Shown: positions 3,296 to 21,938 of the stretch, one piece after another
Layout: each line of letters starts with the position of its first letter
Position numbering within the stretch: position 1 is the stretch's first letter
IMG/VR virus record: IMGVR_UViG_3300012352_000418
Coordinates: 1 to 64,000 of that record
Length of the DNA: 64,000 bases
Strand: one strand, 5' to 3'
Source: a virus
Program-made: the position numbers and the translations under genes
The notes under the pieces: model-generated
The model's database searches: none
Told to the model about the DNA's origin: nothing
The model's input: only the letters and a program-made list of their open reading frames with translations

Positions 3296-3915
3296 TCTCG
3301 GACTTGCCATTTATAAAATACGCTGCTATACTGGTGAACATGTTTTATTTTAAGAGGACTCTTGGTCTGATTGTTGGAACTGGCTTGGTGTGCATCACTG
3401 CTACCCCAGCCTACGGAATCGAATTCCATCAATCTAATCAAGCAGAAGTTCAAGAAGTCAAAACAGATTCCCGTGACAAGGTGCAGACAATTGAAATTGT
3501 TTCTGTTGTTCAGCCCTTGGCACAAAGATCAGAAGTTACTGTTGTCGAAGCCTCGGTTGCAGTAGAACCTGTTCGAACACAACCCATCTCCACATCTCTT
3601 CCTGGAAACCAGGGATTGCTGGGTGCAGCTCTTGCACAAATAGGATGGGCCGAAGATTGTACGGCGTTGGTTGAAAATGCTTTACGTGCGATTGGACACC
3701 AAGTGCCAGACGTTGGACCCATGCAGTTTATGCAGTATGGTGTTCAAGTTGACGCTTCACAGATACAGCCAGGAGACATTATGATTCGCTCTGGTCACGT
3801 TGCCATCTATGCAGGTAACGGAACGGCTGTACACGGTGGCTTTGGAGGTAGAGTTGTGCTTACTAGCACTGACTCTGATCCATATAGCTACCACGCAATA
3901 ATTCGCATCGGTTGA
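3289..3915 (+). CDS. secreted NlpC/P60-family peptidoglycan endopeptidase (candidate endolysin)
   Basis: Signal-peptide-like N-terminus (LGLIVGTGLVCITATPAYG). C-terminal ...AEDCTALVENALRAIG...GDIMIRSGHVAIYAGNGTAVHGG matches the Cys/His/His NlpC/P60 core. Alternative start at 3340. Confidence 0.75.
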   Translation: MLVSDLPFIKYAAILVNMFYFKRTLGLIVGTGLVCITATPAYGIEFHQSNQAEVQEVKTDSRDKVQTIEIVSVVQPLAQRSEVTVVEASVAVEPVRTQPISTSLPGNQGLLGAALAQIGWAEDCTALVENALRAIGHQVPDVGPMQFMQYGVQVDASQIQPGDIMIRSGHVAIYAGNGTAVHGGFGGRVVLTSTDSDPYSYHAIIRIG

Positions 3916-3926
3916 TGCTTGACATC

Positions 3927-3961
3927 TGCCCACCTTTATGAAACAATAGTAAGGGTGGGCA
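3927..3961 (+). terminator. possible terminator hairpin after the NlpC/P60 gene
   Basis: TGCCCACCTT-N14-AAGGGTGGGCA (10 bp stem with one bulge), followed by only a weak T-tract (TGATGTTTG). Confidence 0.3.
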
Positions 3962-4006
3962 TGATGTTTGCCCTGCACATTTAAATAAACTATTTTTGGA
4001 GAAGTA

Positions 4007-4204
4007 ATGAGCGAACAACCAACAGACCAAGAGAAGTATCTTCGCAACCTTGAGTCTCTTTTTACAATTGCAATGCACAAGCTAGGAAACGATGTAGAGA
4101 TTTCCGATGAAGAGCTTGCTGCAATTAGACCAGACATGGCACTTGATGTGACTACCACAGAGACTGGTCTACGTCTTCGAATGGTAGAAGATGTACAAGA
4201 ATGA
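4007..4204 (+). CDS. hypothetical protein (65 aa, acidic)
   Basis: Track ORF; GGAG 6 nt upstream of the ATG. Confidence 0.55.
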   Translation: MSEQPTDQEKYLRNLESLFTIAMHKLGNDVEISDEELAAIRPDMALDVTTTETGLRLRMVEDVQE

Positions 4205-5159: not shown

Positions 5160-5851
5160 TTGATGTATTAGATGAAGGCTACGTTCGCCTTGTCGATACC
5201 CTCGGAGATGACCTATCGGTAGTTAACGCTGCCCGTGTATCATACGATAAAGAGTCTGGTGACTTCGAGCCTCGTGACGCTAAACTAATTCAGTTCTTGA
5301 TCCGTGAAGGACACACTAGCCCATTACGACATGCAGCTATGACCTTTGAGGTCTATGCACCACTATTTGTTGCACGTCAATGGTGGAAGTATGCTGTTAG
5401 CTCTACTCATGTGGACGATCAGAATGGTTGGAACGAATCTAGCCGTCGCTATATTACAGAGGAAGAGCAGTTCTACGTTCCGCTACCAGATCAATGGAGA
5501 AGCAAGCCAGAGAATAGCAAGCAGGGTAGCGGTGAGCCAGTTGATCTTGAACTAGGACAGAAGCATTTTGATGCACTACTAGACATCATTGGTATTGGGA
5601 CTACTGCGTACCATAAGGCTATGGATGATGGTATTGCACCAGAGCTAGCCCGTCTATTCCTTCCTGCGTACGGCATGTACGTACGTTGGCGTTGGACAAC
5701 ATCCCTGCAGGGTGTCATGACATTCCTAGACCAACGTCTAGAGCATGATGCACAGTGGGAGATTCAGAAGTATGCACAAGCTGTAGAACAACTATCTACA
5801 AGTGCATTCCCAGAGGTATTTAGAGCAGCTAAGGAGATTAAAAATGCTTAA
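5147..5851 (+). CDS. thyX: ThyX-family (FAD-dependent thymidylate synthase-like) protein, divergent active-site motif
   Basis: ThyX-like blocks are present: VRLVD...VVNAARVSY, EGHTSPLRHAAMTFEV, SSRRY, NSKQGSG, ARLFLPAY...RW. The canonical RHR is replaced by WKY. TTG start with GGAGG 6 nt upstream. Confidence 0.7.
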   Translation: MESVIDVLDEGYVRLVDTLGDDLSVVNAARVSYDKESGDFEPRDAKLIQFLIREGHTSPLRHAAMTFEVYAPLFVARQWWKYAVSSTHVDDQNGWNESSRRYITEEEQFYVPLPDQWRSKPENSKQGSGEPVDLELGQKHFDALLDIIGIGTTAYHKAMDDGIAPELARLFLPAYGMYVRWRWTTSLQGVMTFLDQRLEHDAQWEIQKYAQAVEQLSTSAFPEVFRAAKEIKNA

Positions 5852-6128
5852 ACCAATTGAAGATAAACTAGTTCTACGTCGAGACAAGGAAGAGCAGACC
5901 ACATCGTCTGGCTTTGTTCTTGCAGGCGTACAGGAAGAAAAGCAGGGTACTGGAATTGTGCTTGCAAAGGGACCTGGAAAGGTTCTTGATAACGGTAGCG
6001 TTATTGAAATTGATGTTGAGGTTGGAGACCGTGTAGCATTCTCTAAGTACCAGGGTACGGAGATTGAGCATGATGGTGAAGAACTTCTTATCATTGCGTA
6101 CCGTGACATTTTAGCCATCATTGGTTAA
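5844..6128 (+). CDS. groES: co-chaperonin GroES (Cpn10)
   Basis: MLKPIEDKLVLRR...TTSSGFVLAG...GTGIVLAKGPG...VGDRVAFSKYQGTEI...DILAIIG aligns along the full length with GroES. AAGGAG RBS. Track ORF trimmed to ATG 5844. Confidence 0.85.
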   Translation: MLKPIEDKLVLRRDKEEQTTSSGFVLAGVQEEKQGTGIVLAKGPGKVLDNGSVIEIDVEVGDRVAFSKYQGTEIEHDGEELLIIAYRDILAIIG

Positions 6129-6142
6129 CTAAATAAGCTATA

Positions 6143-6880
6143 ATGGATGTACTTAGTTTTAGGAGTGAGATGTCAAACGCATACTCACGAATTGGCTATG
6201 GAAGATTTAAAAACAAGGAGACTAACGTGTCAGACAAAGTAGATCAGACTGGGTATGGAACACCAGTCTCTGTACCATTCGAGGAGACTATTGTGCCAAG
6301 CTATGAAGCTTCACCAGAAAATGAATGGGAGCTTGCAGGTGAGGATGGTTGGCTAGACAACGATGTTCCCGTCCCAAGCCCACTCACAAAGCGTGAAGAG
6401 CTATACCGTATTCAGGAGTCTAAGCGTGCTGCTAAGATTCAGGTAGACCAGAAGATTGTTCTTGTGACCTGGCTTGTTGCTGTAGGTATCGCATTTGTTT
6501 CATCTGCTATCGTATCCTTTAATGGTATTACTTCTGTAGCTGAGTTTGTAGGACTGTCTGCCGCATGGATGGCTGGACTGTTCTTCTTCTTTATTGAGCT
6601 TATGTATCTTATCTTTCTTGTTGCATACCTTGTCCTTGCATCTCGTGTAGACGATGACGGCAATCCAGAGAAGACTGGTGGTGCACTATGGGGAATGATC
6701 TCATTTGCTGCTATTGCAGTTGGTGCTAACGCTTTCCACACCCTGGACTTCTGGAACTGGGACATTGTTAATCCACAAATGTGGGCAGGTGTCGTGCTAT
6801 CTGTAGCTGCACCTATCGCTATCATTAGTGCATCCAAGATGGCATCTCGTGTAGTGTTTGCTAGAGCTATTAAGCTTTAG
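6143..6880 (+). CDS. integral membrane protein (about 4-5 TM), unknown function
   Basis: Track ORF. The C-terminal two-thirds consist of hydrophobic helices. The alternative start ATG 6170 has AGGAG upstream and may be the real start. Confidence 0.65.
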   Translation: MDVLSFRSEMSNAYSRIGYGRFKNKETNVSDKVDQTGYGTPVSVPFEETIVPSYEASPENEWELAGEDGWLDNDVPVPSPLTKREELYRIQESKRAAKIQVDQKIVLVTWLVAVGIAFVSSAIVSFNGITSVAEFVGLSAAWMAGLFFFFIELMYLIFLVAYLVLASRVDDDGNPEKTGGALWGMISFAAIAVGANAFHTLDFWNWDIVNPQMWAGVVLSVAAPIAIISASKMASRVVFARAIKL

Positions 6881-6887: not shown

Positions 6888-6960
6888 GGCCCTGTAGCTA
6901 AGTGGATATAGCGAGTGGTTTCTACCCACTAGGACGGGAGTTCGAATCTCTCCAGGGTCG
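6888..6960 (+). tRNA. tRNA-Arg (anticodon TCT)
   Basis: Hand-folded cloverleaf: acceptor GGCCCTG/CAGGGTC, D-stem GCTA/TAGC, anticodon stem AGTGG/CCACT with loop TTTCTAC, T-arm GGGAG-TTCGAAT-CTCTC. No encoded CCA. Confidence 0.85.
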
Positions 6961-6971
6961 CGAATAGAACA

Positions 6972-6986: not shown

Positions 6987-7289
6987 ATGCCATATAAAAA
7001 TAAAGAAGATATGTATGCCAATCAGAAAAGGCATAGGGTTTCCATGAGAGCTAAGATTTTAGATTATTTACTAGAACATCCATGCGAGATTTGCGGAGAA
7101 TCAGACCCCATTGTTCTAGAGTTTGATCACATAAACCCTGAAAACAAAACAAAAAATGTTGCTAGATATTTAGCTGGACATGCTGGATGGGACAAGATAT
7201 TTTCTGAGATAGAAAAATGCAGAGTACTCTGCTGCAATTGTCATAGACGACACACCTATGCCCAGCAAAAACACTGGGGTAGGGGATAA
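6987..7289 (+). CDS. HNH endonuclease
   Basis: CEICG...EFDHINP...N...CCNCHRRHT: Cys-pair zinc finger plus the H-N-H motif. Confidence 0.8.
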   Translation: MPYKNKEDMYANQKRHRVSMRAKILDYLLEHPCEICGESDPIVLEFDHINPENKTKNVARYLAGHAGWDKIFSEIEKCRVLCCNCHRRHTYAQQKHWGRG

Positions 7290-7291: not shown

Positions 7292-7939
7292 GTGAGTAAC
7301 AATAGATGGCTTGATCCAGTAGTAGAACAGTATAAAGAATACTTTGGGGACAAAGCAACCATACTATTCGATGTTGGTTCTCGTGATGGGCACGATGCGT
7401 CTTATATAGGAAACAAACTTAAGACTAGGCATGTCTATGCAATTGATGCTAACCCTTTAGCGATTGAAAACATTAAGAAAAACTACCCAGGATTTAAAAC
7501 CTTTTATACTGCCGTTCACGAGTATGATGGCACAACAGAGTTTACTCAAATAGTTTCTGATGACAAGGATCATGAGGGGTCTTCCTCTATCGAAAACTTT
7601 TCTTTCTTTGAGGAAGCCACATACAATACGATTACTGTGCCAGTAACAAGAATGGATACGTTTATTGAATCCAATAAGCTGCAGGAAAAAACCATAGATA
7701 TTGTGAAGGTGGATATTGAGGGATACAGCTATGAGTTTATTATGGGCATGGGTGACTATGTTCACAATGTCAAACTATTTCATTTAGAGACGGAAATGTT
7801 TGATAGACATCCAGGGCATAAGAATAACAATATGGTTATAGACCTTATGCTTGAGCGTGGGTTCTTACTTTGCCACACATCGTATCAGTGGGAGGGTATC
7901 CAGGATCAAATCTGGATTAACTCAGGACTCATACTGTGA
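7292..7939 (+). CDS. FkbM-family SAM-dependent methyltransferase
   Basis: LFDVGSRDGHDA (SAM motif I-like) and IDIVKVDIEGYSYEFIMG, typical of the FkbM family. GTG start. Confidence 0.65.
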   Translation: MSNNRWLDPVVEQYKEYFGDKATILFDVGSRDGHDASYIGNKLKTRHVYAIDANPLAIENIKKNYPGFKTFYTAVHEYDGTTEFTQIVSDDKDHEGSSSIENFSFFEEATYNTITVPVTRMDTFIESNKLQEKTIDIVKVDIEGYSYEFIMGMGDYVHNVKLFHLETEMFDRHPGHKNNNMVIDLMLERGFLLCHTSYQWEGIQDQIWINSGLIL

Positions 7940-8611
7940 TGGCTCTGGAAACATTTCTTTAAGAACGTTATCATATAAGATAGCAAACGAATCATCATTG
8001 GTTGATATGAATGGTGAATTGTCCTTGTCGTATGTATAGGACTTTGATCTATACCTAGCATTGTTGTATGTCTTTACGTCAACGATCTCGCTACCGCCGA
8101 TGTTTGCCAGGTTTCCATATACAGAACGTGGAGCAAGCGTATCACGTGGGACAACCTCAAGAAACTTTGTTTTATTAATTGGTAGTGGAACATGAATGTC
8201 ATAGTCTAGTGGGTCACTTACCCCCTTAGACTGCATGTGTTTCATAGCTCTGCCAAGTAGACCTGAGTATGCTGTGGGACCTAGCAGGTCCGTGTATGCG
8301 GCAATCTTAGAAGCAAGGGTGCCACCGTATAGGGGTAAAAAGTTTGCGATGTTTTCTAAAATAAAGAAGTCATCATTCATCAAAACAAAGTCTTCGGAAA
8401 TTTCTTCTGAGCTTACTGCAGCCAACAAACATGCGGCTATGTTCTTAAACTTGCCACCAGTATCCCTAACTGGAATGTGTCCACCAGCAAACCAATCTGG
8501 TTTGCCTCCTACAAGCCACACACGGCCTTCTGGAGCGTTTTTAGCTATGGATCTTAAAGAGTATCGAAGCTCCTCGTTGTCACCACCACGGGTGATATAA
8601 ACGTAATCCAT
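7922..8611 (-). CDS. minimal Stealth-like (hexose-1-phosphoryltransferase family) protein
   Basis: DYVYITRGGD (CR1-like), EELRYSLRSI...WLVGGKPDWF (CR2-like) and FVLMNDDFFIL (CR3-like). Opposite strand to its neighbours. Track start TTG 8614 trimmed to ATG 8611. Confidence 0.55.
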   Translation of the reverse strand: MDYVYITRGGDNEELRYSLRSIAKNAPEGRVWLVGGKPDWFAGGHIPVRDTGGKFKNIAACLLAAVSSEEISEDFVLMNDDFFILENIANFLPLYGGTLASKIAAYTDLLGPTAYSGLLGRAMKHMQSKGVSDPLDYDIHVPLPINKTKFLEVVPRDTLAPRSVYGNLANIGGSEIVDVKTYNNARYRSKSYTYDKDNSPFISTNDDSFAILYDNVLKEMFPEPSQYES

Positions 8612-8644: not shown

Positions 8645-9067
8645 ATGAGTCTTACAATCAAACAGAGAATCGTTAACATGAGAATGGCAGGTGCCTCTTA
8701 TGCGGATATCCAGCGTGAATTGAATTGTGAAATGACCGTTATCTCTTATCATTTAAATAGAGACTCTAAAGTTAACGTGTCAAAGAAGATGCGTCATGAG
8801 CACGGTAGCGAGCTAGAGGCGATCCAGGCATACAAAGAACGTATGGGTTGCATTGATTGTGAGAAGGACTACCCCCACTATGTGCTAGAGTTTGATCACC
8901 TACCAGAGTTTAAGAAGTTTGGTCAGGTGTCTCACATCCTTAAAAAGTATGGTCCCGACAAGGCCTGGGAAGAAATTGCCAAGTGCGATGTTGTTTGCTC
9001 AAACTGCCACAAACTTCGTACCAATGCTAGATTGTTCCCAGAAGAATATGCTACACTAGACTCATAA
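8645..9067 (+). CDS. HNH endonuclease with N-terminal HTH
   Basis: MRMAGASYADIQREL (HTH-like), CIDCE...EFDHLPEF...CSNCHKLRT (HNH). Confidence 0.8.
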   Translation: MSLTIKQRIVNMRMAGASYADIQRELNCEMTVISYHLNRDSKVNVSKKMRHEHGSELEAIQAYKERMGCIDCEKDYPHYVLEFDHLPEFKKFGQVSHILKKYGPDKAWEEIAKCDVVCSNCHKLRTNARLFPEEYATLDS

Positions 9068-9075: not shown

Positions 9076-9399
9076 GGGAGTGAAAGGTTTTCGACTAGTA
9101 TCGGATATCTGGAGAAGCATGTATTGACGGGCACAAACAATTCACTTGTGTCAATCGGATAAGTGCAAAATATAACGCCGAATACGCTCTAGCAGCTTAG
9201 GTTGTCTGCGAAAGCACCTTGCCAGCAGTGATCACGCTGAGCAGCAAGTTCTTTAAATAAAGTGATGCTTCTTAGGATGGTATAGTTGGGCAGAGTGATG
9301 CTAGTATCAGCTCTGTCTGTTTAGTAAAACTAGCTAAACATGTAGAAGTACGGATAGCCACATACTAGGACCAGGGTTCGATTCCCTGCACTTCCACCA
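9076..9399 (+). ncRNA. ssrA: tmRNA (SsrA), tag peptide AKYNAEYALAA
   Basis: 5' GGGAGUG pairs with 3' CACUUCC-A-CCA, including G3:U70. GGUUUUCGAC resembles the tmRNA D-analog. T-arm CAGGG-UUCGAUU-CCCUG. P2 helix CUAGUAU/AUACUAG. Internal frame GCA AAA UAU AAC GCC GAA UAC GCU CUA GCA GCU UAG at 9165-9200. Confidence 0.9.
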
Positions 9400-9400
9400 A

Positions 9401-9844
9401 TTATACTATGTTATACGTTCCAGCAATGTGAAAGTTGTCTGCAACGTTGAGGGTAACTGGAACGTTATGCGTAAAAGACTCTTGCTTACCATTTGATGTG
9501 GTAGTGAGCAGCCTTAGCTGGTTGGAGTTTGCTAGGACATGTCCCAAGATAGCATACTCACTGCCAGTTGAGGTGTCGTGCAAGCATCCATTACTAAGTA
9601 AGTAGTTATACTTTGAAGTGAATGGAAGGTTTACATAATACTGACCACTTCCAAAGTTAGTAATGTTATCCATATCAACATCAATATTGAAATGACAAAT
9701 GTTGTCCATTAAGGTCCAGCTTCCAGAAAAAAGTGGTGCACCGTTAAATGTTGGCTGAGTGCCTAGAGAGCCACCCTCAATTTGCCAAGTACCGTCTGCA
9801 GAAGATCCAGACCCCGTTGTTCCTGGATGTGTAAACCTAGCCAT
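9401..9844 (-). CDS. hypothetical protein (147 aa, beta-rich, G/S/T/N-rich)
   Basis: Track ORF; TAATG coupling with the upstream gene. Composition resembles fibre or decoration proteins (inference only). Confidence 0.6.
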   Translation of the reverse strand: MARFTHPGTTGSGSSADGTWQIEGGSLGTQPTFNGAPLFSGSWTLMDNICHFNIDVDMDNITNFGSGQYYVNLPFTSKYNYLLSNGCLHDTSTGSEYAILGHVLANSNQLRLLTTTSNGKQESFTHNVPVTLNVADNFHIAGTYNIV

Positions 9845-10125
9845 TATTGCTTTCCTTCTAGGTTAATAGAGAGTACGGCAACCTTTAAATTGCTTGTCGA
9901 ACCAATAACGTATAGTTCATCTTGTGAATCTAACTCAAAAGAGATGGCGTGGTTGGGTGAAACTCTATATCCATAGTTTTCAGCAGTTACGCCTGCACCA
10001 CCGACATAGACGTATCCGTAAGCGTTTACGTTTTGAATAGTAACGTCACGACCAGATCTTGTCGATGACTCAGATACGGCAACTCGTGTGGTTCCCACTG
10101 TGTAAAGATTATGTTGTGTACTCAT
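9844..10125 (-). CDS. hypothetical protein (93 aa, beta-rich)
   Basis: Track ORF; TGGTACAAT box 6 nt upstream of the ATG. Confidence 0.6.
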   Translation of the reverse strand: MSTQHNLYTVGTTRVAVSESSTRSGRDVTIQNVNAYGYVYVGGAGVTAENYGYRVSPNHAISFELDSQDELYVIGSTSNLKVAVLSINLEGKQ

Positions 10126-10144: not shown

Positions 10145-10888
10145 TTACTCAAAAGCTGAGCCTTGCCAGAATTTCTTTTCACGCTCAACGATAGCACGTG
10201 ACCATGCAAAACCAGCATTGCCACCCCATGCATCCCACATGATACGACCATTGGATGGGTTAGACGTATTGTTAAAGTCCTTGCCCTTCTTGTCTACTTC
10301 GTGACGAGAAAAGAAAGAGTACATACGCTTAACAGTACTAAGAGACATAGCTCTACCTGCTACGATGTCTGTTGCTCTACCCCAGCCAACAGGGGTTCCA
10401 GCACCAGTTGCCTTACCCTCTTCTTTCCATTTGAGTGCACGTCTAGCAGCAGCTTTCATTCCAGAGTTTGGAGTGTAGGTGTCTGCCTTAGCAAGTGCCT
10501 CGTCATACTTCTTCACTGGAACGCAGTTAGGAACCATGCTTCCACCCTTACCAGGCTTCATGCCACGCATAACATAGCCTTCCCAGCATGGGGACGCTTT
10601 TGCTAGTCGCTCTAATTCTTCGAGGTCATCCTCTTCAACGCCAATCTCTACATCTGCAGGCATTGCATCGCTGTGAAGCATCCCAATGGAATAGGCTGTG
10701 GGGTACCACATGCCATCCTCTTCTTCGTAAACCCTAACAGCCATTGCTGGATTCTCTGGTGTGCTTTCGATAGCATACTCTGTGCCCTCAACACCATACG
10801 TTCCGCCCTCAAGCATTACATGCTCTACACGACCAACTACAACACCCTCGGATGTTGTTCCGATTACCATGTCGCCTTCTTTTATCAT
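10145..10888 (-). CDS. conserved-looking phage protein of unknown function (247 aa)
   Basis: Motifs CWEGY...GKGGSMVPNCVP and TPNSGMKAAARRALKWKEEG...GTPVGWGRA...STVKRMYSFFSRHEVDKKG...GRIMWDAWGG. I recall similar blocks in other phage proteins but cannot name the family. Confidence 0.6.
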   Translation of the reverse strand: MIKEGDMVIGTTSEGVVVGRVEHVMLEGGTYGVEGTEYAIESTPENPAMAVRVYEEEDGMWYPTAYSIGMLHSDAMPADVEIGVEEDDLEELERLAKASPCWEGYVMRGMKPGKGGSMVPNCVPVKKYDEALAKADTYTPNSGMKAAARRALKWKEEGKATGAGTPVGWGRATDIVAGRAMSLSTVKRMYSFFSRHEVDKKGKDFNNTSNPSNGRIMWDAWGGNAGFAWSRAIVEREKKFWQGSAFE

Positions 10889-11247
10889 TAGATACCTCCC
10901 ATAGAGTTTCCGCTAACACCAATAGCACCATCACTATTAAGTGCATCCGACGAACGTCCTCTTCTTGTATTTTTTGGCTTCTTGCCATACTGAGATCTGA
11001 TACCAGAACCAGTCTTGCCGCCTGCTCTACCCTGCTCAGGACGCTTAATTCCTGCACCAGGATACTTTGGATCAACAGTAATAGACATGTCTTTTTGTGC
11101 GTCTGGTACGTTTGCGTACAATGCTGCTACATGTGACTCTGCTTCTGCACGAGTACCATGACACCCTACGGTCTTTCCAGCTTCATCTTGAACAGCATAA
11201 CCAGAGCAGCCAAGCCCGTCACCCTTACCGCTAATTTTATATGGCAT
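10888..11247 (-). CDS. hypothetical protein (119 aa; basic G/K/R-rich C-terminus)
   Basis: Track ORF 10888-11301 trimmed to ATG 11247 (TAATG overlap with the dps stop). Confidence 0.55.
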   Translation of the reverse strand: MPYKISGKGDGLGCSGYAVQDEAGKTVGCHGTRAEAESHVAALYANVPDAQKDMSITVDPKYPGAGIKRPEQGRAGGKTGSGIRSQYGKKPKNTRRGRSSDALNSDGAIGVSGNSMGGI

Positions 11248-11693
11248 TAGTCTTCTTCCATCTCCATTGATGCACGTAACTGCCAGCAAAACTTCTGGCA
11301 AGCTGTCTGACGGTCTGCAAGGAAGTTAGCCAAACCAAACTCGTTAAGAGAGTTTGCTACCTGCCCAGCCATGACCAAGTCTTCTTTGTGCTTCTCTACT
11401 GCATCGTAAAGATCTGCAACCATTTCTTCTGCATCTCCGACAATAAGTGGCTCTGAGATAGAGCTAGAGTCAAAGAACTCTGAGATTCTGTAAGGAGCGT
11501 AGGCGTTAAGCATACGAATCCACTCTGCATGTGCATCAGTTGCCCCCTCAAAGTCTTCATAAATCTTTCCAAAGAATTTGTGGAATTGTGCAAAGTCATC
11601 GGACTCGACGTTCCAGTGGTATCCCTGTGCCTTGAAGCGTAATGTAATGTTGTCTGCTAGCAGTGCCTTTAGTAGGCTAATGAGTTGTTCCAT
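11247..11693 (-). CDS. dps: Dps-like ferritin-fold protein
   Basis: LKALLADNITLRFKAQGYHWNVESDDFAQFHKFFGKIYEDFEGATDAHAEWIRML reproduces the Dps HWNV...FH...D..AE ferroxidase-site pattern. Track ORF trimmed to ATG 11693. Confidence 0.7.
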   Translation of the reverse strand: MEQLISLLKALLADNITLRFKAQGYHWNVESDDFAQFHKFFGKIYEDFEGATDAHAEWIRMLNAYAPYRISEFFDSSSISEPLIVGDAEEMVADLYDAVEKHKEDLVMAGQVANSLNEFGLANFLADRQTACQKFCWQLRASMEMEED

Positions 11694-11700
11694 ACCTATA

Positions 11701-11709
11701 ATTATAACA
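11701..11709 (-). promoter_or_regulatory. extended -10 promoter TGtTATAAT for dps
   Basis: The minus strand reads gTGtTATAATtataggtATG; 7 nt to ATG 11693. Confidence 0.45.
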
Positions 11710-11718
11710 CAGCGTAGA

Positions 11719-11727
11719 TGGTATACT
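11719..11727 (+). promoter_or_regulatory. extended -10 promoter TGgTATACT for the glycosyltransferase
   Basis: aTGgTATACTattattacaATG; 9 nt to ATG 11737. Divergent from the dps promoter within a 43-nt spacer. Confidence 0.4.
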
Positions 11728-11736
11728 ATTATTACA

Positions 11737-13644
11737 ATGGCAAAAATATTAGTAATCTCAGCAAACCCAAACATGTTAGACACAAGTTCTGGTGGGTCAG
11801 AAAGATCGTTTAAACTCTTAGAATCTATTAGTGGGCATGACGTACACGTTGTAGCTTTTAGTTGGGGTGGAGAAGATCACAGCACTACCCTCGCAGATGG
11901 CACAAAGTTTTCTGTTTATGCAGCTGACCCAGGCACAGCAAGAAGAGGCAACAACCAGAGGCAGAGACTGGATGGCAAAAGTCGTGACCTAACCATTTAC
12001 TTGCTAAAAGACTTTATGACAAAGTTTAAGAATGTTGTTAGAAAAGAGTTGAAGGATACTGATTTGGTTATTCTCGATCATTTTGCAACAGCACCTTTAT
12101 TTGATGAACTTAATGTAAATAACTTACCAGTTATCTATGCGTCACACAATGCAGAGATCACACTTGCAGAACAACTATACAAAGTAAACTCTTTAGACCT
12201 AAAGGTTACGGCTCAGATGGAGGAGCTTGCCTTAAATCTTTGTGATCTTTACACTTACTGTTCAACTCAAGACGAGCAGAAGATTCGTGAGTTCTACAAG
12301 ACAAACAAGAAGTCTGTATATATTCCAAACGGTACGCAGATCAGAAAGCCAGATGCTGATGTATCCAGGAACAACAAGGTTGTTTTGTTTGTTGGTAGCG
12401 GTCACCCACCGAACGTTGTTGCAGCAAAGAACCTTATTCCAATTGCTCAGGCTTTGCCAGACTACACCTTCAAGGTTGTTGGTGACGCAAGCAATGCTCT
12501 TAAAACAATGAAGCCATCTGACAACATCGAAATCCTTGGCAAGGTCGATGACGAAACATTGGACTATTTATTTAAGTCTTCTGGTGTATTCATTAACCCC
12601 ATGGAGAGTGGAGCAGGAACACACCTTAAGGTTATGAAGGCGTTAAGCTATGGCCTCCCCATTATTTCCTCTACCGTTGGTGCTAGAGGATTCTCTGAAG
12701 AAGAGATTGACTCATGTATGCTAATTGGAGACAATTCTGATGAAATGGTAGAAGCCATTTTAAAACTAGGGGATACTAAGGTATACGCCAGTTTGTCAGA
12801 AAGCAGCTACAAGCTTGCCAAGAGCTTTGACTGGGAGAATATCCAGGGTGAATTTAAAGATGTTGTAGAGTCAATGCTAAGTGCAGAGGCATTAAACAAA
12901 GCAATCAAGAAGTTGATTCCTAAAAAGAAGATACTTATGTATTCTATTATTCGTAATAGAGAAAAGCAAATGGGGCAGTACCACAAGCAGATCGCTGATG
13001 TGGTAAAGGCTTTCCCAGAACATGAGTTCTACTTGTCTATTTATGAGAACGACTCTACCGATAGCACTAAGAGGTTGTTGTTTAGCTTTGACTGGTCTAT
13101 GCTTAAGGGTATCTCGATCATTAGTGAGAATGTTAACACTAAGTATTTTGGTTCTGTTAAGGATGAAGAAAGAGTTATGAATCTGTCCATTGCTAGAAAC
13201 AAGGCTATTGAGGCTGCAGGCTTCTTAGATACCGCCGACTACGTGCTCATGTTTGAGGGTGACGTAAAGTTTGGTGTGGGTGACATCAGAGAGCTTCTTG
13301 AATTTGAAACACTTGAGCCAGACTTCGATGTTGTCTCTGCCATGTCTGTTCGTCCAAACGGTACATTCTATGACGTATGGGCTACTAGGACTACAGATGA
13401 ATACCAGCCTGGTGTGTTCCCCCTTGAAGACGGATACCGCACAAAGCATTACGGAAGATACCTATCTACCTCTAGTGGGCTTTGCCTATACCGTGCTAAG
13501 CCATTCCAGGAAGGTGCTAGACACCACTGGATCAATAAGAAGACTGGTGAAGGCGATTGCGAGATGGTCGTTGTCTGCCAAGACTTCCGTGCTCGTGGCT
13601 ACGAAAATATCTTTATTAACTACAGAGCAAAAGCATATCATTAA
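11737..13644 (+). CDS. two-domain glycosyltransferase (N-terminal GT-B/GT4-like + C-terminal GT-A-like)
   Basis: N-terminal half: KILVISANP...GGSERS... and NPMESGAGTHLKVMKALSYGLPIISSTVGARGF (GT4 EX7E-type region). C-terminal half: SIYENDSTDSTKRLL...ARNKAIE...VLMFEGDVKF (GT-A/DxD-like). Track ORF trimmed from 11578 to ATG 11737. Confidence 0.65.
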   Translation: MAKILVISANPNMLDTSSGGSERSFKLLESISGHDVHVVAFSWGGEDHSTTLADGTKFSVYAADPGTARRGNNQRQRLDGKSRDLTIYLLKDFMTKFKNVVRKELKDTDLVILDHFATAPLFDELNVNNLPVIYASHNAEITLAEQLYKVNSLDLKVTAQMEELALNLCDLYTYCSTQDEQKIREFYKTNKKSVYIPNGTQIRKPDADVSRNNKVVLFVGSGHPPNVVAAKNLIPIAQALPDYTFKVVGDASNALKTMKPSDNIEILGKVDDETLDYLFKSSGVFINPMESGAGTHLKVMKALSYGLPIISSTVGARGFSEEEIDSCMLIGDNSDEMVEAILKLGDTKVYASLSESSYKLAKSFDWENIQGEFKDVVESMLSAEALNKAIKKLIPKKKILMYSIIRNREKQMGQYHKQIADVVKAFPEHEFYLSIYENDSTDSTKRLLFSFDWSMLKGISIISENVNTKYFGSVKDEERVMNLSIARNKAIEAAGFLDTADYVLMFEGDVKFGVGDIRELLEFETLEPDFDVVSAMSVRPNGTFYDVWATRTTDEYQPGVFPLEDGYRTKHYGRYLSTSSGLCLYRAKPFQEGARHHWINKKTGEGDCEMVVVCQDFRARGYENIFINYRAKAYH

Positions 13645-13684
13645 AGAGCAGTTTTAAGTCATGCTCAGGACTTCGATCTACCTA

Positions 13685-14140
13685 CTAATATTTATTATTA
13701 GCACTGTGATCAATGATCTCAATGCGTTTAGGCTTTTGTTCTTCTGGAATATTACGCTTAATGAAGATGCGTAGGATTCCATCCTTTAGAGATGTCTTCT
13801 CTACTTCCATATATTCGCCAAGTGCAAACTTACGGGTAAACTTGCGTGTGGCAATACCCTTGTAGAGATACTCTGGTTCAGCAGCTGGTGATTCTAAAAT
13901 CTCTCCAGCCACAATCAGATTTCCATCATCTATGGTTACGGATAGATCATCAATCGAAAAGCCAGCAACTGCAAGCATCAGATCATATTCGTCATCCGTA
14001 TACTTTACCACATTGTATGGTGGATATGAGATAGAAGAGTTTGTCTTCTGTAGTGTATTGAGTCTATCGAATTCCCGACTAAACCCAATGAGGAATGGAT
14101 CGTTAAATACGTCCATCATTGTTTTGTATGTTTTTACCAT
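13685..14140 (-). CDS. small heat-shock protein (Hsp20/IbpA family)
   Basis: YPPYNVVKYTDDEYDLMLAVAGFSIDDLSVTIDDGNLIVAGE...RKFTRKFALGEYMEV...DGILRIFI is an alpha-crystallin domain. AAAGGAG RBS before ATG 14140. Confidence 0.8.
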   Translation of the reverse strand: MVKTYKTMMDVFNDPFLIGFSREFDRLNTLQKTNSSISYPPYNVVKYTDDEYDLMLAVAGFSIDDLSVTIDDGNLIVAGEILESPAAEPEYLYKGIATRKFTRKFALGEYMEVEKTSLKDGILRIFIKRNIPEEQKPKRIEIIDHSANNKY

Positions 14141-14196
14141 ATTATCACTCCTTTTAAGCGAGTTATTTGTATTACCCCTCCGAAGAGCAGGCAATT

Positions 14197-14577
14197 CTAT
14201 GATACCACATCGTCATCTGGCAAGAAGCTGATTAACTTTTTATATGCATCATTAATTATTTTTGCATCATCAGTACTGAGAGCTATATCGTAGGCGAGTA
14301 GTGCTTGCTGCACATCCTCAATATACTCAAAAGCCCACTCACGAGATTCAGATACAAAGCGTAGAAAGCCTTCTGTATTCTCAATCTTGTCAGAGTCACG
14401 TGCACCTTCGAGTTGATCGATGCGTGCTGTTAGTGCTGCTTTTTCAATTACTTCTGCTGCAAGCTGATTCCTAATGCTTTTATTATTAATCAGAGACCTG
14501 GAGTAGCCAAATGCGACTAGGCAAAACAATAGTGTATATACAATAAAGCCAATCAGAGAAAGCAATTCTGTATTCAT
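14197..14577 (-). CDS. hypothetical membrane-anchored coiled-coil protein (126 aa)
   Basis: Track ORF; N-terminal TM (LLSLIGFIVYTLLFCLVAFGY). Confidence 0.6.
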   Translation of the reverse strand: MNTELLSLIGFIVYTLLFCLVAFGYSRSLINNKSIRNQLAAEVIEKAALTARIDQLEGARDSDKIENTEGFLRFVSESREWAFEYIEDVQQALLAYDIALSTDDAKIINDAYKKLISFLPDDDVVS

Positions 14578-14814
14578 TTACAAACCTTCTTCGCCGTCTC
14601 TTACAAGCATTACGATTGCACCATTGTCTTCCAGTGCCTTCTTGACTCGAACCATATATTCAACAGCATCACGCTTATCTTCGTCAAGCAAGTTAAAGAA
14701 TTGCTTCGCACTTGCCTTTACTGTTAGGAAATGCTCGTTGTCAACAATCTGAACGCCAAAGTTTTTAGGTGGCGTAACAGAGTAGAAGGCTCTCTTCATT
14801 TCATCTGTGTACAT
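14578..14814 (-). CDS. hypothetical protein (78 aa)
   Basis: Track ORF, tightly packed between its neighbours. Confidence 0.6.
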   Translation of the reverse strand: MYTDEMKRAFYSVTPPKNFGVQIVDNEHFLTVKASAKQFFNLLDEDKRDAVEYMVRVKKALEDNGAIVMLVRDGEEGL

Positions 14815-15029
14815 TACTTATCTCTTTTCCAATGTAAATAGGATCTAACATATACCGTGGCATATGCTATGGCAGAAAATATGAAACCATATTGTTCTGT
14901 TGCAATGGCATAAACAAACCATATGCATTCGTTAGCTAACAGAATTAGCCAACCCCAAATAGTCTTCTGACCAACAAAGAATATTCCAGCTACACCAATT
15001 GCAGCTAGTACCCATGACCACATTTCCAT
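14814..15029 (-). CDS. 3-TM small membrane protein (71 aa), Trp-rich
   Basis: Three hydrophobic helices with W-rich ends (WSWVLAAIGVAG..., IWGWLILLANECIWFVYAI, YGFIFSAIAYATVYV...HWK). Reminiscent of a single PnuC/semiSWEET-type repeat (weak recollection). Confidence 0.55.
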   Translation of the reverse strand: MEMWSWVLAAIGVAGIFFVGQKTIWGWLILLANECIWFVYAIATEQYGFIFSAIAYATVYVRSYLHWKRDK

Positions 15030-15031
15030 AA

Positions 15032-15316
15032 TTAATTATCCATCGTTAGATATTGCCAGGTTTGAGACCAATCCTCTTTAGACCTGTGCTTATTGAATTC
15101 CCTGGAAATTTTTCCATTCTCAATATACACACCTCCCCAGACTCCCCATTCTTTCTGAGAGACACCAACAGCAAAACATTGCTTTACCATTGGGCAGTCA
15201 GAACATAGCTTGTCAATGGCAGGCCTGAGTTCAAGATTATCTTCATACTTATCAAAGAATAAGTTAGTGTCATAGTCCCTGCAAGATCCTAGATCTTTCC
15301 ACTCATGCTTGTCCAT
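15032..15316 (-). CDS. whiB: WhiB-like Fe-S transcription factor
   Basis: Four Cys in the WhiB pattern (C...C-x2-C-x5-C: CRDYDTNLFF...LCSDCPMVKQC), followed by the GVWGG turn. Confidence 0.8.
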   Translation of the reverse strand: MDKHEWKDLGSCRDYDTNLFFDKYEDNLELRPAIDKLCSDCPMVKQCFAVGVSQKEWGVWGGVYIENGKISREFNKHRSKEDWSQTWQYLTMDN

Positions 15317-15317
15317 G

Positions 15318-15527
15318 TTACCTCACAAGCTTTAATGGGATATTCCATCCATTCTCGACAGGCTCGTAACGGTTCTGTACATGCCATTGTGAATTTCTAA
15401 ATACACCGTTGGTCTTTGACCATGCGGTTGGGTCCTGCTTTGTGTGGAGAACTGTCCAACCATCCCAGCTGAGGGACTTGTTGTTTGCGACAATCTCTTC
15501 CATTTGATTAAGTGATGTGATTTGCAT
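15318..15527 (-). CDS. hypothetical protein (69 aa, Trp-rich)
   Basis: Track ORF 15318-15599 trimmed to ATG 15527, just downstream of the deaminase stop. Confidence 0.5.
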   Translation of the reverse strand: MQITSLNQMEEIVANNKSLSWDGWTVLHTKQDPTAWSKTNGVFRNSQWHVQNRYEPVENGWNIPLKLVR

Positions 15528-15532
15528 CTTTC

Positions 15533-15889
15533 TCAACCTTCTGTGTATATTACTTTTTTGATTTGCATTGTTTGTATTACTACCTCGCAGTGTTTGCAAG
15601 GTCTGCTGTTCCTATCGCTACCCTGACGATTTAGTCTGGCAACATAAAGAACTGCACCACGTACATTCCAGTTAGCATCTTTCATCGCCTCTATTTCAGC
15701 ATGACGACTACAATGCGTTTTGATATGTTCTGGTGACACCTGTGTCGGATGATTCTTATCCTTGTTGTAGCCAGTACCAAGGACACGCCCTGACTTAACC
15801 ACAACTGCTCCGTGCTTCTGTCTAGCAGCAGACTTCTTAGAAAGATATCTTGCTACTGAAAGAAAGGCCTCTTCGCTTTTGCTAAGCAT
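15533..15889 (-). CDS. dCMP/cytidine deaminase-fold zinc enzyme (dCMP deaminase-like)
   Basis: CSRHAEIEAM and RPCKHCEVVI reproduce the H(C)AE...PCxxC zinc motif. Confidence 0.75.
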   Translation of the reverse strand: MLSKSEEAFLSVARYLSKKSAARQKHGAVVVKSGRVLGTGYNKDKNHPTQVSPEHIKTHCSRHAEIEAMKDANWNVRGAVLYVARLNRQGSDRNSRPCKHCEVVIQTMQIKKVIYTEG

Positions 15890-16235
15890 ACCGATAGATT
15901 CCTACATCAAGATCTAAGTCTTCTGCCTTAGCCACCAGGGGTGACACGGTCTCTTTGGGAAGACTGAAATACATGAAGTGATCCACTACCTGCATATTCT
16001 TATCAAACCAAGCAACGGGAACCTTAACAATCTTTGCATGAATGCCACGGGCCTTCAGGCTACGCTCAGATACGTTTGTAAATTCCATACCCATAGAGTT
16101 TAACCTTGCTGGTCCTGCAGACATAATGGTGAACTGCTCGTCTCCTTCTGACATGCTAGATAGAGCTGTTCCCATAGCACGAAGAAAGACATTGTAGTCT
16201 GAGAAGTTCTTACTACCCTGAATTCCTATAATCAT
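15882..16235 (-). CDS. SLOG/DUF2493-like Rossmann-fold protein
   Basis: MIIGIQGSKNFSDYNVFLRAMGTAL...FTIMSAGPARL resembles the GxxGSR..fxD start of DUF2493/SLOG proteins (from memory; moderate). Confidence 0.4.
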   Translation of the reverse strand: MIIGIQGSKNFSDYNVFLRAMGTALSSMSEGDEQFTIMSAGPARLNSMGMEFTNVSERSLKARGIHAKIVKVPVAWFDKNMQVVDHFMYFSLPKETVSPLVAKAEDLDLDVGIYRYA

Positions 16236-16626
16236 TAAAGTTGCCCTTCGTTAAAGTTTCAATGATATTAATCATCTTATCTAATTGTACCTTGTCCATA
16301 GCCATTGTGTCAACTGGCTTAGCTGTTGCCTTGTCCACATTGCCATCCACAAGGCTTGCACTATAGAATGTGTTCTCTTTAATCCAGTAAGCCATTTCAT
16401 CTACCACCAAAATTTTAGTGAAGATCTTGTCGTAGTGTTTACTGCTTTGACTTGGGGCTAGCTGCCTGATTAGGCTGTCTGGAATAAATGGTCTGATAAG
16501 CTCATATACATTCGACTGACTATAAACAATATCTATTTTATTTTTATTCTCGATGTCTCGCACAATAAACTTCCTGGTTACAACTACTGCAACTAGGGTA
16601 ATTATTGCACCAACAAAAAACTCCAT
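16213..16626 (-). CDS. hypothetical membrane-anchored protein (137 aa)
   Basis: Track ORF; N-terminal TM (FFVGAIITLVAVVVT). TATAAT 6 nt upstream of the ATG. Confidence 0.6.
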   Translation of the reverse strand: MEFFVGAIITLVAVVVTRKFIVRDIENKNKIDIVYSQSNVYELIRPFIPDSLIRQLAPSQSSKHYDKIFTKILVVDEMAYWIKENTFYSASLVDGNVDKATAKPVDTMAMDKVQLDKMINIIETLTKGNFNDYRNSG

Positions 16627-16632
16627 CAGTTA

Positions 16633-16638
16633 ATTATA
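16633..16638 (-). promoter_or_regulatory. -10 box TATAAT, leaderless-type
   Basis: The minus strand reads gTAGTATAATtaactgATG; 6 nt to ATG 16626. Overlaps the stop codon of the upstream gene. Confidence 0.35.
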
Positions 16639-16965
16639 CTACTCTTCAGAAAAGTATTCAATAATATTTTGCATGATAAGCTGCTGGTGATCAGTTAGCT
16701 TGCTTAGCTCTGTCAAGTCCCTGGACTTTTCGGTTAGCGTTACTACTGGGTCATCGTCTGCCATTGTGATATCCACAAAGCCCTTTTCCCAAAGAACAAG
16801 GAAATGGCTATAGATTCCAGCTTCAATAGTTTGAGCAAGTTCTGGATAAAGGTCTGGCATCTTCTTGGTAAAGCTATAGGTAAGCTCACCGTTATCATCA
16901 ATACCAGCTACCTCTGCAGCACCTGCCAGGATCATTTCTTCAAGCATGTCATTGTGCCTAGACAT
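16639..16965 (-). CDS. hypothetical acidic protein (108 aa)
   Basis: Track ORF. Confidence 0.6.
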   Translation of the reverse strand: MSRHNDMLEEMILAGAAEVAGIDDNGELTYSFTKKMPDLYPELAQTIEAGIYSHFLVLWEKGFVDITMADDDPVVTLTEKSRDLTELSKLTDHQQLIMQNIIEYFSEE

Positions 16966-17217
16966 TTAGTCCCCCTTAAGGCGGTTCTCGCCCTGCATTG
17001 ACCAGCGTTCATCAATGATCTCAAACGCAAACTTCTTCATGGCCTCAGAGTCTTCTGCCTTGTTGTAGTGGTGTCCACAGAATAGTAGCTCTCCAGATAC
17101 CCCAGAAACCTTCACAAGAGCTGCAGCACCACACGCTTTTGCATCGCAACGATCATTGAGCGTTAGTACCCGTGTCTTTACTTCTTCTACAATTTCTGGT
17201 TCAATCACAGTTGTCAA
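16966..17217 (-). CDS. hypothetical small Cys/His protein (83 aa)
   Basis: CDAKACGAAALVKV...LLFCGHHYNK suggests a zinc-binding small protein. TTG start. Confidence 0.5.
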   Translation of the reverse strand: MTTVIEPEIVEEVKTRVLTLNDRCDAKACGAAALVKVSGVSGELLFCGHHYNKAEDSEAMKKFAFEIIDERWSMQGENRLKGD

Positions 17218-17226
17218 AACAACCCC

Positions 17227-17406
17227 TTACTTGTCTGTGGAATAAAAGCCGCTGCCCTTAAAGGCAACTCCTACTTTAGAGTATACACGCTTTATATCTG
17301 AATTGCAAGACTTACATGCAGGAAGATCTTTATCACGATCATCTGCTGATTTAACTAATGTTAATTTTGTATCACATTCGATACATTTGTACTCATAGAT
17401 TGGCAT
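17227..17406 (-). CDS. FmdB-family zinc-ribbon protein (59 aa)
   Basis: MPIYEYKCIECDTKL...CKSCNSD...GSGFY matches the CxxC_CxxC_SSSS (FmdB) signature. AAGGAGG RBS. Not in the track (under 60 aa). Confidence 0.7.
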   Translation of the reverse strand: MPIYEYKCIECDTKLTLVKSADDRDKDLPACKSCNSDIKRVYSKVGVAFKGSGFYSTDK

Positions 17407-17421
17407 AAAGCCTCCTTTTCG

Positions 17422-17493
17422 AGCCTCAAGTGAATTCCGAGATCACAACCTCCTGTTTACAAGACAGGTGCTCTACCGTTGAGCTATTGAGGC
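17422..17493 (-). tRNA. tRNA-Thr (anticodon TGT) with non-canonical T-arm
   Basis: Acceptor GCCTCAA/TTGAGGC, D-arm GCTC-AACGGTA-GAGC, anticodon stem CCTGT/ACAGG with loop CTTGTAA. The T-arm GTGAT-CTCGGAA-TTCAC lacks G53-C61 and the TTC/A58 pattern. Confidence 0.65.
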
Positions 17494-17564
17494 AAAAGCA
17501 GGGATATCGCTTACCCTACAGGCGACCGACTATCGGCAGGTAGACTGATCATTTCTACCTATTG

Positions 17565-17638
17565 CGACCCTAACCAGACTTGAACTGGCGACCTTCTACG
17601 TGACAGGCAGACGCTCTAACCAACTGAGCTATAGGGCC
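17565..17638 (-). tRNA. tRNA-Asp (anticodon GTC)
   Basis: Acceptor GGCCCTA/TAGGGTC, D-arm GCTC-AGTTGGTTA-GAGC, anticodon loop CTGTCAC, T-arm GCCAG-TTCAAGT-CTGGT. Confidence 0.85.
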
Positions 17639-17829
17639 AAGTGCCATTCGTGGGACAGGATTAAGCCTATGCGAAACACCCAATGGCTGTACAACCTAGC
17701 ATACCCCCTTAGTGGACTCGCCCTGAACGGCTATCCGAATGGAAGCAGCAACGATAGTTTCGGTTGCATCATTTTCTCTAGGTATTGTTCAGAGACCTAG
17801 AGTAAACTTATACGCTATTTAGTTATTCG

Positions 17830-17901
17830 CTGCCCCACCTGGATTCGAACCAGGAACCTTGAAGTTAACAGCTTCCTGCTCTGCCGTTGAGCTATGGAGC
17901 A
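17830..17901 (-). tRNA. tRNA-Asn (anticodon GTT)
   Basis: Acceptor TGCTCCA/TGGGGCA (one G-U pair), D-arm GCTC-AACGGCA-GAGC, anticodon loop CTGTTAA, T-arm CCTGG-TTCGAAT-CCAGG. Confidence 0.8.
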
Positions 17902-17955
17902 ATATACCACCACCAGTGAATATCGTTGAGTGATGCTAGGTGATGATACTATTCA

Positions 17956-17985
17956 ATTATACTCACAGTCTTAGCTGTTTGTCAA
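17956..17985 (-). promoter_or_regulatory. promoter TTGACA-18 nt-TATAAT for the tRNA operon
   Basis: The minus strand reads TTGACAaacagctaagactgtgagTATAAT, about 55 nt upstream of tRNA-Asn. Confidence 0.55.
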
Positions 17986-17986
17986 G

Positions 17987-18703: not shown

Positions 18704-18711
18704 TATACCCC

Positions 18712-18885: not shown

Positions 18886-21938
<3,053 letters not shown>

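Follow-up and report, generated by a model that had tools for sequence, protein, structure and literature searches.

Transfer-messenger RNAs (tmRNAs, ssrA) were reported in 402 of 18,146 phage genomes (2.3%; PMC9004378). Three were present among the first 30 mycobacteriophages (PMC1475703), those of the huge phages occur together with SmpB (PMC7162821), and the cluster BE1 Streptomyces phages carry exactly one tmRNA per genome (PMC5764925). Here we describe a tmRNA gene in a 64,000-nucleotide stretch of viral DNA (IMG/VR virus record IMGVR_UViG_3300012352_000418, positions 1 to 64,000), which is called the window throughout. According to the top protein matches, the closest cultured relatives of this phage are the large Streptomyces siphoviruses of the Stanwilliamsviridae, with amino acid identities over the full length of 54–56% for DnaE and 45–49% for the portal protein. 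In this group, ARAGORN yielded a tmRNA of 267 nt with the tag AESNSAFALAA for Mildred21 (cluster BE1), and a tmRNA of 280 nt with the tag ANSRNAFALAA for Muntaha (Loccivirinae). The original prediction, which was made from the letters of the window, described phage tmRNAs as rare. With about 2.3% of phages carrying one, and with the gene being standard in the closest cultured relatives, this was overstated for the present lineage.

ARAGORN called a one-piece tmRNA of 324 nt at 9076–9399 (+), its coding part occupying gene positions 90–125 (window 9165–9200). The Rfam model RF00023 returned the same coordinates with a score of 102.4 bits (E 7e-39) against a gathering score of 47 bits, and the match spanned the full length of the model (positions 1–374). 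The proposed complete tmRNA with the tag AKYNAEYALAA was thus confirmed. The parts that had been read by eye were all found in the sequence: the acceptor stem GGGAGUG/CACUUCC with G3:U, the discriminator A and the encoded CCA, the D-loop analog GGUUUUCGAC, the T-arm CAGGG-UUCGAUU-CCCUG, the P2 helix CUAGUAU/AUACUAG, and the frame from GCA to GCU UAG. As a member of RF00023, the RNA has a complete tRNA-Ala-like domain (7-bp acceptor, G3:U70, discriminator A, T-arm, and D-loop analog), an Ala resume codon, a hydrophobic ...ALAA terminus, a stop codon in the P5 loop, and pseudoknot PK1 directly upstream of the resume codon. From these determinants, charging by alanyl-tRNA synthetase (AlaRS), binding of SmpB, and trans-translation are predicted. 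The gene is of one piece and, as had been supposed, phage-encoded: phage genes lie on both sides of it, and it recurs with these neighbors in separately assembled contigs.

Pattern-based scanning of IMG/VR and of metagenome contigs turned up 11 more homologs of full length, along with a single truncated one, all on viral or metagenomic contigs. The tmRNAs of this family fall into three subgroups, are 76–98% identical to each other, and score 94–117 bits on RF00023. Over the 12 full-length members, G3:U, the discriminator A, the T-loop, and the UA at –5/–4 before the resume codon GCA are invariant. The Rfam E-value and the covariation over the 12 homologs place the tmRNA above chance, and the 324-base stretch was confirmed as a genuine, structurally conserved phage-borne ribosome-rescue RNA.

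The tag frame was constrained in a specific manner. The resume codon, the YALAA residues, and the UAG stop are fixed over the 12 members; the only substitutions inside the YALAA codons are TAC>TAT and GCA>GCG, both of which are synonymous. The sole indel in the frame comprises 3 nt and is in frame. The tag is thus conserved as a coding sequence, as would be expected if it serves as a functional template. The related phages also keep the acceptor and T-arm pairing along with the in-frame ALAA-stop, the conservation whose absence the original prediction had named as a reason to abandon it, together with the lack of a significant model match. The tag body varied. The tag AKYNAEYALAA was found in the window and in four homologs (L002, L026, L049, and L050), AKYTPEEYALAA in three (L048, L051, and L054), ANYTPEEYALAA in L061, ANDKTKYALAA in L035 and L057, and ANNKTKYALAA in L058. 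The five bodies over the fixed YALAA are AKYNAE, AKYTPEE, ANYTPEE, ANDKTK, and ANNKTK. A comparison of the window group with the L035 group revealed five substitutions in tag codons 2–6, each of which alters the encoded amino acid.

A secondary structure was drawn manually, guided by the sequence of the window tmRNA and its Rfam alignment, and the pairs were counted on a MAFFT alignment of the 12 sequences (A3). Standard pairs filled 95.0% of the 981 cells, and 21 of the 82 pairs showed changes on both sides. When the 3′ partner was slid by 1–3 columns, 31–44% of the cells were paired and 0–5 double-change pairs were obtained; in 500 shuffles, neither the pairing nor the double-change counts nor the covariation score of the real alignment was ever reached. 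As the structure was modeled on a single aligned sequence, its pairing percentage is somewhat favored in the slid control. This does not apply to the double changes, which arise in the other subgroups and are independent of the choice of the window as the structure source. The minimum-free-energy z-score of the single sequence was weak (–1.61) with a fold method that does not handle pseudoknots, and RNAalifold, in which no pseudoknots are possible, mispaired the P2c strand with the region of the resume codon.

Inspection of the individual helices showed double-change pairs in P2a (4/7) and P2b (3/7). The P4 helix of PK1 contains two compensatory pairs (G:U to C:G or U:G, and C:G to U:A), and the PK2 hairpin contains three. 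In the pseudoknot helix of PK2, four of the five pairs were changed on both sides (e.g., AUCAC/GUGAU vs GUUCUG/CAGAAC). Three compensatory pairs were found in the hairpin of the PK4-like element, whose pseudoknot helix is 100% paired and has one pair changed from C:G to U:A in 5 sequences. The T-arm displays one compensatory pair, with U:A in place of A:U in 5 sequences. Two pseudoknot helices, P7 and P11, covary. The acceptor stem, including its G:U, and helices P2c and P3 never vary, and hence they are uninformative on covariation. The compensatory changes, the fixed identity elements, and the synonymous-only changes in YALAA indicate selection on the function of the RNA itself.

Three downstream pseudoknots, PK2–PK4, are typical of tmRNAs, but they are not known to be universal or essential. 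The four pseudoknots PK1–PK4 had been anticipated for the window tmRNA; PK1, PK2, and a PK4-like element were borne out by covariation, and PK3 was not. The RNA therefore appears to be a three-pseudoknot tmRNA. The canonical PK3 site holds an unpaired 23-nt block (GCUUCUUAGGAUGGUAUAGUUGG at 9267–9289; GCTTCTTAGGATGGTATAGTTGG), which is almost constant even though the 12 homologs otherwise differ by up to 24%. The block includes a CUUCU whose complement, AGAAG, occurs twice in the internal loop of P2.

The gene belongs to a phage whose genome could be delineated from other assemblies. Among the window genes are those for the portal, the maturation protease, the major capsid protein, a 2043-aa tape measure, a minor tail protein, and a DnaE-type polymerase. 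Both subunits (large and small) of ribonucleotide reductase, a terminase-like protein, RecA, an RNase H-fold exonuclease, a Cas4-like nuclease, a primase, and a DnaB helicase are encoded as well, and no integrase was found among the window open reading frames (ORFs) scanned. The window has a GC content of ~43%. Two contigs, Ga0136551_1000002 (JGI 3300010388; 95,625 bp) and ERZ926485 k127_76205 (ENA; 95,575 bp), on which loci L186/L187 and L194/L195 lie, are ~97% identical to the window. Both are permuted relative to it, with a contig end near window position 29,000. Such independent permuted contigs suggest a complete circular or circularly permuted genome of ~95.6 kb, and the window probably represents a siphovirus-type, lytic-looking, uncultured phage of that size. 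Exact-protein look-ups found the same gene set on contigs labeled "crustacean metagenome", and a Logan contig from ERR3489832 was 100% identical to window 11022–18972; the phage evidently recurs across samples. A nucleotide search (blastn) of GenBank phages with the tmRNA and with the surrounding 15 kb gave no match, so no cultured close relative was recognized. Two further features of the genome were observed. The terminase-like gene (22345–24126, –) lies inside the block of replication and nucleotide metabolism genes, at a distance from the genes for portal and capsid, an arrangement also seen in Muntaha. A 592-aa ORF next to the portal gene (62176–63954, –) has no PHROG match.

The host is probably an actinobacterium, because the phage encodes a WhiB-family protein. 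The whiB gene has been used in freshwater virome work as a confident marker of actinobacterial hosts and actinophages (PMC6802176). That the host might be a freshwater bacterium of low GC content is a guess from the sample names and the 43% GC of the phage.

In light of these results, we consider it likely that the window encodes a functional phage tmRNA, which would use the AlaRS, SmpB, and EF-Tu of the host to rescue ribosomes during infection and to tag peptides with AKYNAEYALAA for the host proteases. The sequences show the identity of the RNA, its conserved structure and tag frame, and its conserved position in a phage lineage; that the RNA is expressed and charged, depends on the SmpB of the host, and benefits the phage is inferred from established tmRNA biology. 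The tmRNA would be transcribed from the plus strand, probably together with the HNH endonuclease gene that ends 8 nt upstream, and RNase P would free its 5′ end; co-transcription followed by RNase P cleavage is the simplest reading. The 3′ end would be trimmed, or finished by the CCA-adding enzyme in the variants without an encoded CCA. Host AlaRS could then charge the RNA with alanine through G3:U and the discriminator A, and host SmpB and EF-Tu would bring it to ribosomes that have stalled on mRNAs which are broken or lack a stop codon. Translation would resume at GCA (9165), add AKYNAEYALAA, and stop at UAG. This would free the ribosome, and the truncated protein would be marked for host proteases recognizing ...YALAA. 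A profile of 38 SmpB sequences (E. coli SmpB and 37 proteins that it retrieved from ORFs of ssrA-bearing bacterial loci) detected no SmpB gene in the window (best E 0.84) or in ~9 kb beyond its left end (best E 0.29), a search covering all but ~21 kb of the ~95.6 kb genome; because no phage SmpB gene was found, the window tmRNA would rely on host SmpB. The phage may in this way keep ribosome rescue going, as the original prediction suggested, and benefit by topping up or replacing host rescue when mRNA decay, or defenses targeting tRNA or mRNA, strand ribosomes.

Several observations weigh against this functional reading. The 3′ CCA is encoded in only four of the 12 family members (window, L002, L049, and L054), while the other eight have ACTT or ACAA. 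The Rfam alignment of the window tmRNA shows a deletion of the PK3 helix. No convincing dedicated promoter or terminator of the tmRNA was found, the promoter scan giving no more sites than in shuffled sequence, and the flanking gaps measure 8 nt upstream and 1 nt downstream. Finally, a syntenic relative on a 72 kb viral contig (L008) lacks both the tRNA-Arg and the tmRNA. This contig retains WhiB, HSP20, the homolog of 10145–10888, an HNH gene, and the homolog of 6143–6880 in the same order, and a family profile search of it revealed no tmRNA remnant. The tmRNA is therefore dispensable in at least one syntenic relative and is an accessory element, which was gained or lost within the wider phage group.

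The variability of the tag body admits readings that go beyond general rescue. The most far-reaching of these is that the HNH gene and the tmRNA form a mobile accessory cassette of a freshwater actinophage lineage, in which the tmRNA has been reduced to three pseudoknots and has acquired a new, invariant element of 23 nt, and the tag body is under diversifying selection (five variants with YALAA fixed). We regard this as doubtful; if it were true, the phage would tune the fate of tagged proteins or evade a host factor, beyond duplicating host rescue. We consider it unlikely that the RNA is a working tmRNA put to a phage-specific use of tagging rather than to general ribosome rescue. Host nascent chains might be tagged for amino-acid recycling, the infection state might be sensed or regulated via the load of stalled ribosomes, or a translation-acting defense might be countered. 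Hypotheses of this type have been published (PMC9004378, PMC7162821). The tag body diversifies fast among RNAs that are otherwise 76–98% identical, with the amino-acid-changing substitutions described above, and proteostasis genes (Cpn10 and HSP20) lie nearby. A variable tag body is not diagnostic, however, as tag bodies vary freely among bacterial tmRNAs too, and the sequence is indistinguishable from that of a canonical rescue tmRNA.

The constant company of an HNH gene raises another explanation, namely that a selfish cassette built around an HNH homing endonuclease carries the tmRNA mainly as a passenger. The tmRNA would then spread and persist through its linkage to the nuclease and bring little benefit to the phage. 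An HNH homolog directly abuts the 5′ end of the tmRNA in 10 homologous loci (L002, L026, L035, L048, L049, L051, L054, L057, L058, and L061), and the pair is kept in every family locus that reaches upstream of the tmRNA. HNH genes also flank tRNA genes, both here and in Mildred21, and the cassette is patchy, with L008 having an HNH gene and no tmRNA. Hitch-hiking would leave the 21 compensatory pairs, the invariant identity elements, and the synonymous-only changes in YALAA unexplained, and we therefore find the passenger explanation distinctly improbable as the main account. It is compatible with a functional tmRNA, the two not being mutually exclusive. That the sequence is no phage gene at all is hardly credible, whether it is taken for a host ssrA next to an integrated prophage, for the remnant of an attP site, or for a chimeric assembly: host ssrA is a common prophage integration site and four IMG/VR contigs (L020, L021, L023, and L031) do have ANDDNYALAA tmRNAs near a contig end, but the present gene is of full length, has phage genes on both sides and no integrase among the scanned ORFs (which effectively refutes an attP or prophage origin), recurs with the same neighbors in separate assemblies from JGI, ENA, and Logan, and resembles no bacterial tmRNA of the sampled genomes among the matches listed.

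The coordinates of the tmRNA elements and of the neighboring genes are given in Table 1.

Table 1. Elements of the window tmRNA and features of its neighborhood (window coordinates)
Feature	Position	Strand	Remarks
Acceptor stem, 5′ strand GGGAGUG	9076..9082	+	tmRNA positions 1–7; partner 9389–9395; 7/7 pairs invariant in 12/12, G:U at pair 3 included
D-loop analog AAAGGUUUUCGA(C)	9083..9094	+	Aligned to Rfam consensus GGaUUCGAC; one-U length difference in some members
P2a and P2b, 5′ strands	9095..9111	+	tmRNA positions 20–26 and 31–36; partners 9362–9368 and 9351–9356
PK1	9123..9152	+	P3 AUUG/CAAU (48–51/63–66); P4 GGCACAA/UUGUGUC (55–61/71–77)
Tag frame	9165..9200	+	Resume codon GCA 9165–9167; AKYNAEYALAA; stop UAG 9198–9200 in P5 loop; ARAGORN
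P5 stem-loop with stop codon	9185..9210	+	Upper stem 5 bp, 100% of cells paired; lower stem weaker, 83%
PK2	9218..9266	+	Hairpin positions 143–173; loop 156–160 pairs with 187–191
23-nt block	9267..9289	+	Nearly invariant in 12/12; canonical PK3 site
PK4-like pseudoknot	9288..9334	+	Hairpin positions 213–243; loop GCUAGU 225–230 pairs with ACUAGC 254–259
T-arm, acceptor 3′ strand, 3′ end	9372..9399	+	T-arm 9372–9388; CACUUCC 9389–9395; discriminator A 9396; CCA 9397–9399
Cpn10/GroES	5802–6128	+	
tRNA-Arg(TCT)	6888..6961	+	ARAGORN; same strand as the tmRNA and upstream of it
Second HNH gene	6987–7289		Just after tRNA-Arg
FkbM methyltransferase	7292–7939	+	
Stealth-like gene, 230 aa	7922..8614	–	phrog_7999, E 5e-52; weak Stealth_CR2 match
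HNH endonuclease gene	8645..9067	+	phrog_3106, E 1.1e-19; ends 8 nt before the tmRNA 5′ end
Ferritin-like protein	11247–11783	–	
Double glycosyltransferase, 688 aa	11578–13644	+	
HSP20	13685–14194	–	
WhiB-family gene	15032..15316	–	PF02467, 43.9 bits vs cutoff 23.6
Fourth tRNA, read as Thr(TGT)	17422–17493	–	Rfam only, 56.3 bits; read from the anticodon loop; atypical T-loop; rejected by ARAGORN
tRNA-Asp(GTC)	17564–17638		ARAGORN
tRNA-Asn(GTT)	17829–17901		ARAGORN

The tmRNA fills the gap between the HNH gene and a minus-strand block starting at 9401, just where it had been placed. The first gene of this block (9401–9844) converges on the tmRNA, its stop codon lying 1 nt downstream. The tRNA-Arg(TCT) is also found upstream of the tmRNA in seven homologous loci (L002, L048, L049, L051, L054, L057, and L058); the distance between the two is 1–3.4 kb across the family, always on the same strand. 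The stretch from the tRNA-Arg to the HNH–tmRNA pair is variable; a second HNH gene, a gene for an FkbM methyltransferase, and a Stealth-like gene may be present in it. Homologs of the latter (38–98% identity) were found in most of the family loci whose sequence continues beyond the HNH gene on its upstream side, L061 being without one. Since it is conserved in this way, the minus-strand frame is taken as the real gene, and not the overlapping plus-strand ORF at 8235–8600. The original prediction had the tmRNA ending an accessory island. The plus-strand block in question is not uniform, as the conserved Stealth-like gene on the minus strand splits the HNH–tmRNA pair from the upstream genes. A promoter-like site (TTGATA-16-TATAAT with a TG motif, 11/12 matches) is located at 8645–8618, just upstream of the Stealth-like gene.

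Downstream of the tmRNA, the genes at 9401–10125 come and go across the family. The 147-aa product of 9401–9844 has no Pfam or PHROG match, and its homologs were found on 16 viral contigs (L003–L018; 53–63% identity), none of which has a tmRNA near the homolog. In L003, L004, L013, and L016 it is the only shared gene, and L005 also shares the homolog of 9844–10125. This gene was considered and rejected as a synteny anchor, as only L008 proved to be truly syntenic among the contigs examined. By its distribution, 9401–9844 behaves as a mobile gene.

The wider neighborhood also contains ThyX, dCMP deaminase, and several glycosyltransferases. Together with the tmRNA, this accessory cluster suggests the themes of proteostasis and surface modification. 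Four tRNAs had been noted alongside the tmRNA, and all four were recovered, three by ARAGORN (Arg-TCT, Asp-GTC, and Asn-GTT) and the fourth by Rfam alone. In two close relatives (L189 and L190), a tRNA-His is present instead just beyond the site of the fourth tRNA, matching the window junction at 17417/17420. The tRNA cluster of L054 contains a manA RNA motif (RF01745; positions 3830–4014; 57.7 bits vs cutoff 55.2). Neither this motif nor any riboswitch was detected in the window at the Rfam gathering thresholds.

With these results, the known range of phage-borne trans-translation genes, which included cultured Streptomyces phages from soil, is extended to an uncultured lineage that is abundant, was repeatedly assembled from various metagenomes, and is probably a freshwater one. 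As tmRNAs were already known in the nearest cultured relatives, the window tmRNA is an ordinary case for its lineage, and no concept is changed by it. What is modestly new is the compact, covariation-backed structure, for which the 12-member alignment provides the support and which apparently has three pseudoknots. The same holds for the constant linkage to an HNH gene, the variation of the tag body, and the existence of relatives with and without the tmRNA. Such natural presence/absence variants lend themselves to asking how its own tmRNA benefits a phage, and the YALAA C-terminus offers a testable handle for host assignment. Among the papers searched, none was found that joins a tmRNA with freshwater actinophages. 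The family is a distinct, previously undescribed tmRNA lineage of uncultured actinophages, distantly related to the Stanwilliamsviridae.

Compared with the bacterial one-piece tmRNA (RF00023), the window tmRNA has the hallmark elements and matches the model over its full length above threshold, but it is shorter, lacks PK3, and is phage-encoded. A search of bacterial genomes with an acceptor/T-arm pattern was permissive and gave at least 120 matches across many phyla; none of the 86 tmRNAs taken from the matches listed resembles the phage family beyond the tRNA-like domain, so that neither a bacterial donor nor a host emerged from this set. Like the tmRNAs of mycobacteriophages and huge phages, the window tmRNA is phage-borne and lies alongside tRNA genes (PMC1475703, PMC7162821). 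The huge phages encode SmpB (PMC7162821), whereas none was found for the window phage (window and ~9 kb). The Melnitz-type marine phages share the phage-encoded ssrA and the same proposed role of maintaining the hijacked translation (PMC9004378). Their tmRNAs are two-piece and circularly permuted, and that of Melnitz is controlled by a riboswitch, in contrast to the one-piece window tmRNA with its riboswitch-free surroundings (window, Rfam). YALAA-ending tmRNAs also occur on many other viral IMG/VR contigs that are not related to the window (L036, L038, L039, L041, L044, L045, and L046). Among these are two-piece (permuted) tmRNAs beside a tRNA-Thr, some also with a tRNA-Ala, and one 58 kb contig of the set carries 10 tRNAs and a permuted tmRNA.

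The tmRNAs of the Stanwilliamsviridae differ from the window tmRNA in several respects. Those of the Streptomyces phages span 267–280 nt, and neither PK3 nor PK4 is present in their Rfam alignment; the window tmRNA, at 324 nt, accommodates PK1, PK2, and the PK4-like element. Only the universally conserved positions align between the two, and the Mildred21 tmRNA scored 10.6 bits with the window family profile, which is below bacterial tmRNAs not related to it. The sequences thus give no signal of orthology with the Stanwilliamsviridae tmRNAs beyond the universal positions. The window tmRNA is on the strand opposite to the replication block, unlike the tmRNAs of this family. The window contains four tRNAs in 64 kb, compared with 39–48 per genome in the Streptomyces phages, whose GC content is ~49–50% against ~43% here. 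The only window ORFs matching the right arm of Mildred21 are the two HNH genes, WhiB, and dCMP deaminase. The tags end in EYALAA in the window and in AFALAA in the Streptomyces phages. The tag of the Streptomyces host presumably ends in ...AFALAA too, an assumption of ours that was confirmed neither from PMC2635970 nor by a search for AFALAA. If it holds, the tags of the phages imitate the end of the host tag, and ...YALAA should be what the host of the window phage uses.

The similarities with the Stanwilliamsviridae lie in the organization. In both cases, a one-piece tmRNA with a reduced pseudoknot set and an 11-residue tag ending in ...ALAA is carried by large lytic siphoviruses of actinobacteria, among tRNA and HNH genes. 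In Muntaha, the order of DnaE, RecA, Cas4-like exonuclease, terminase, and then the tRNAs is the same as in the window. In both phages, the tmRNA follows a tRNA-Arg and is situated ~21 kb beyond DnaE; in Muntaha, the tRNA-Arg(CCT) directly abuts it. This shared position, that is, the tRNA-Arg linkage and the distance from DnaE, hints at a common ancestry of the window and Muntaha tmRNAs.

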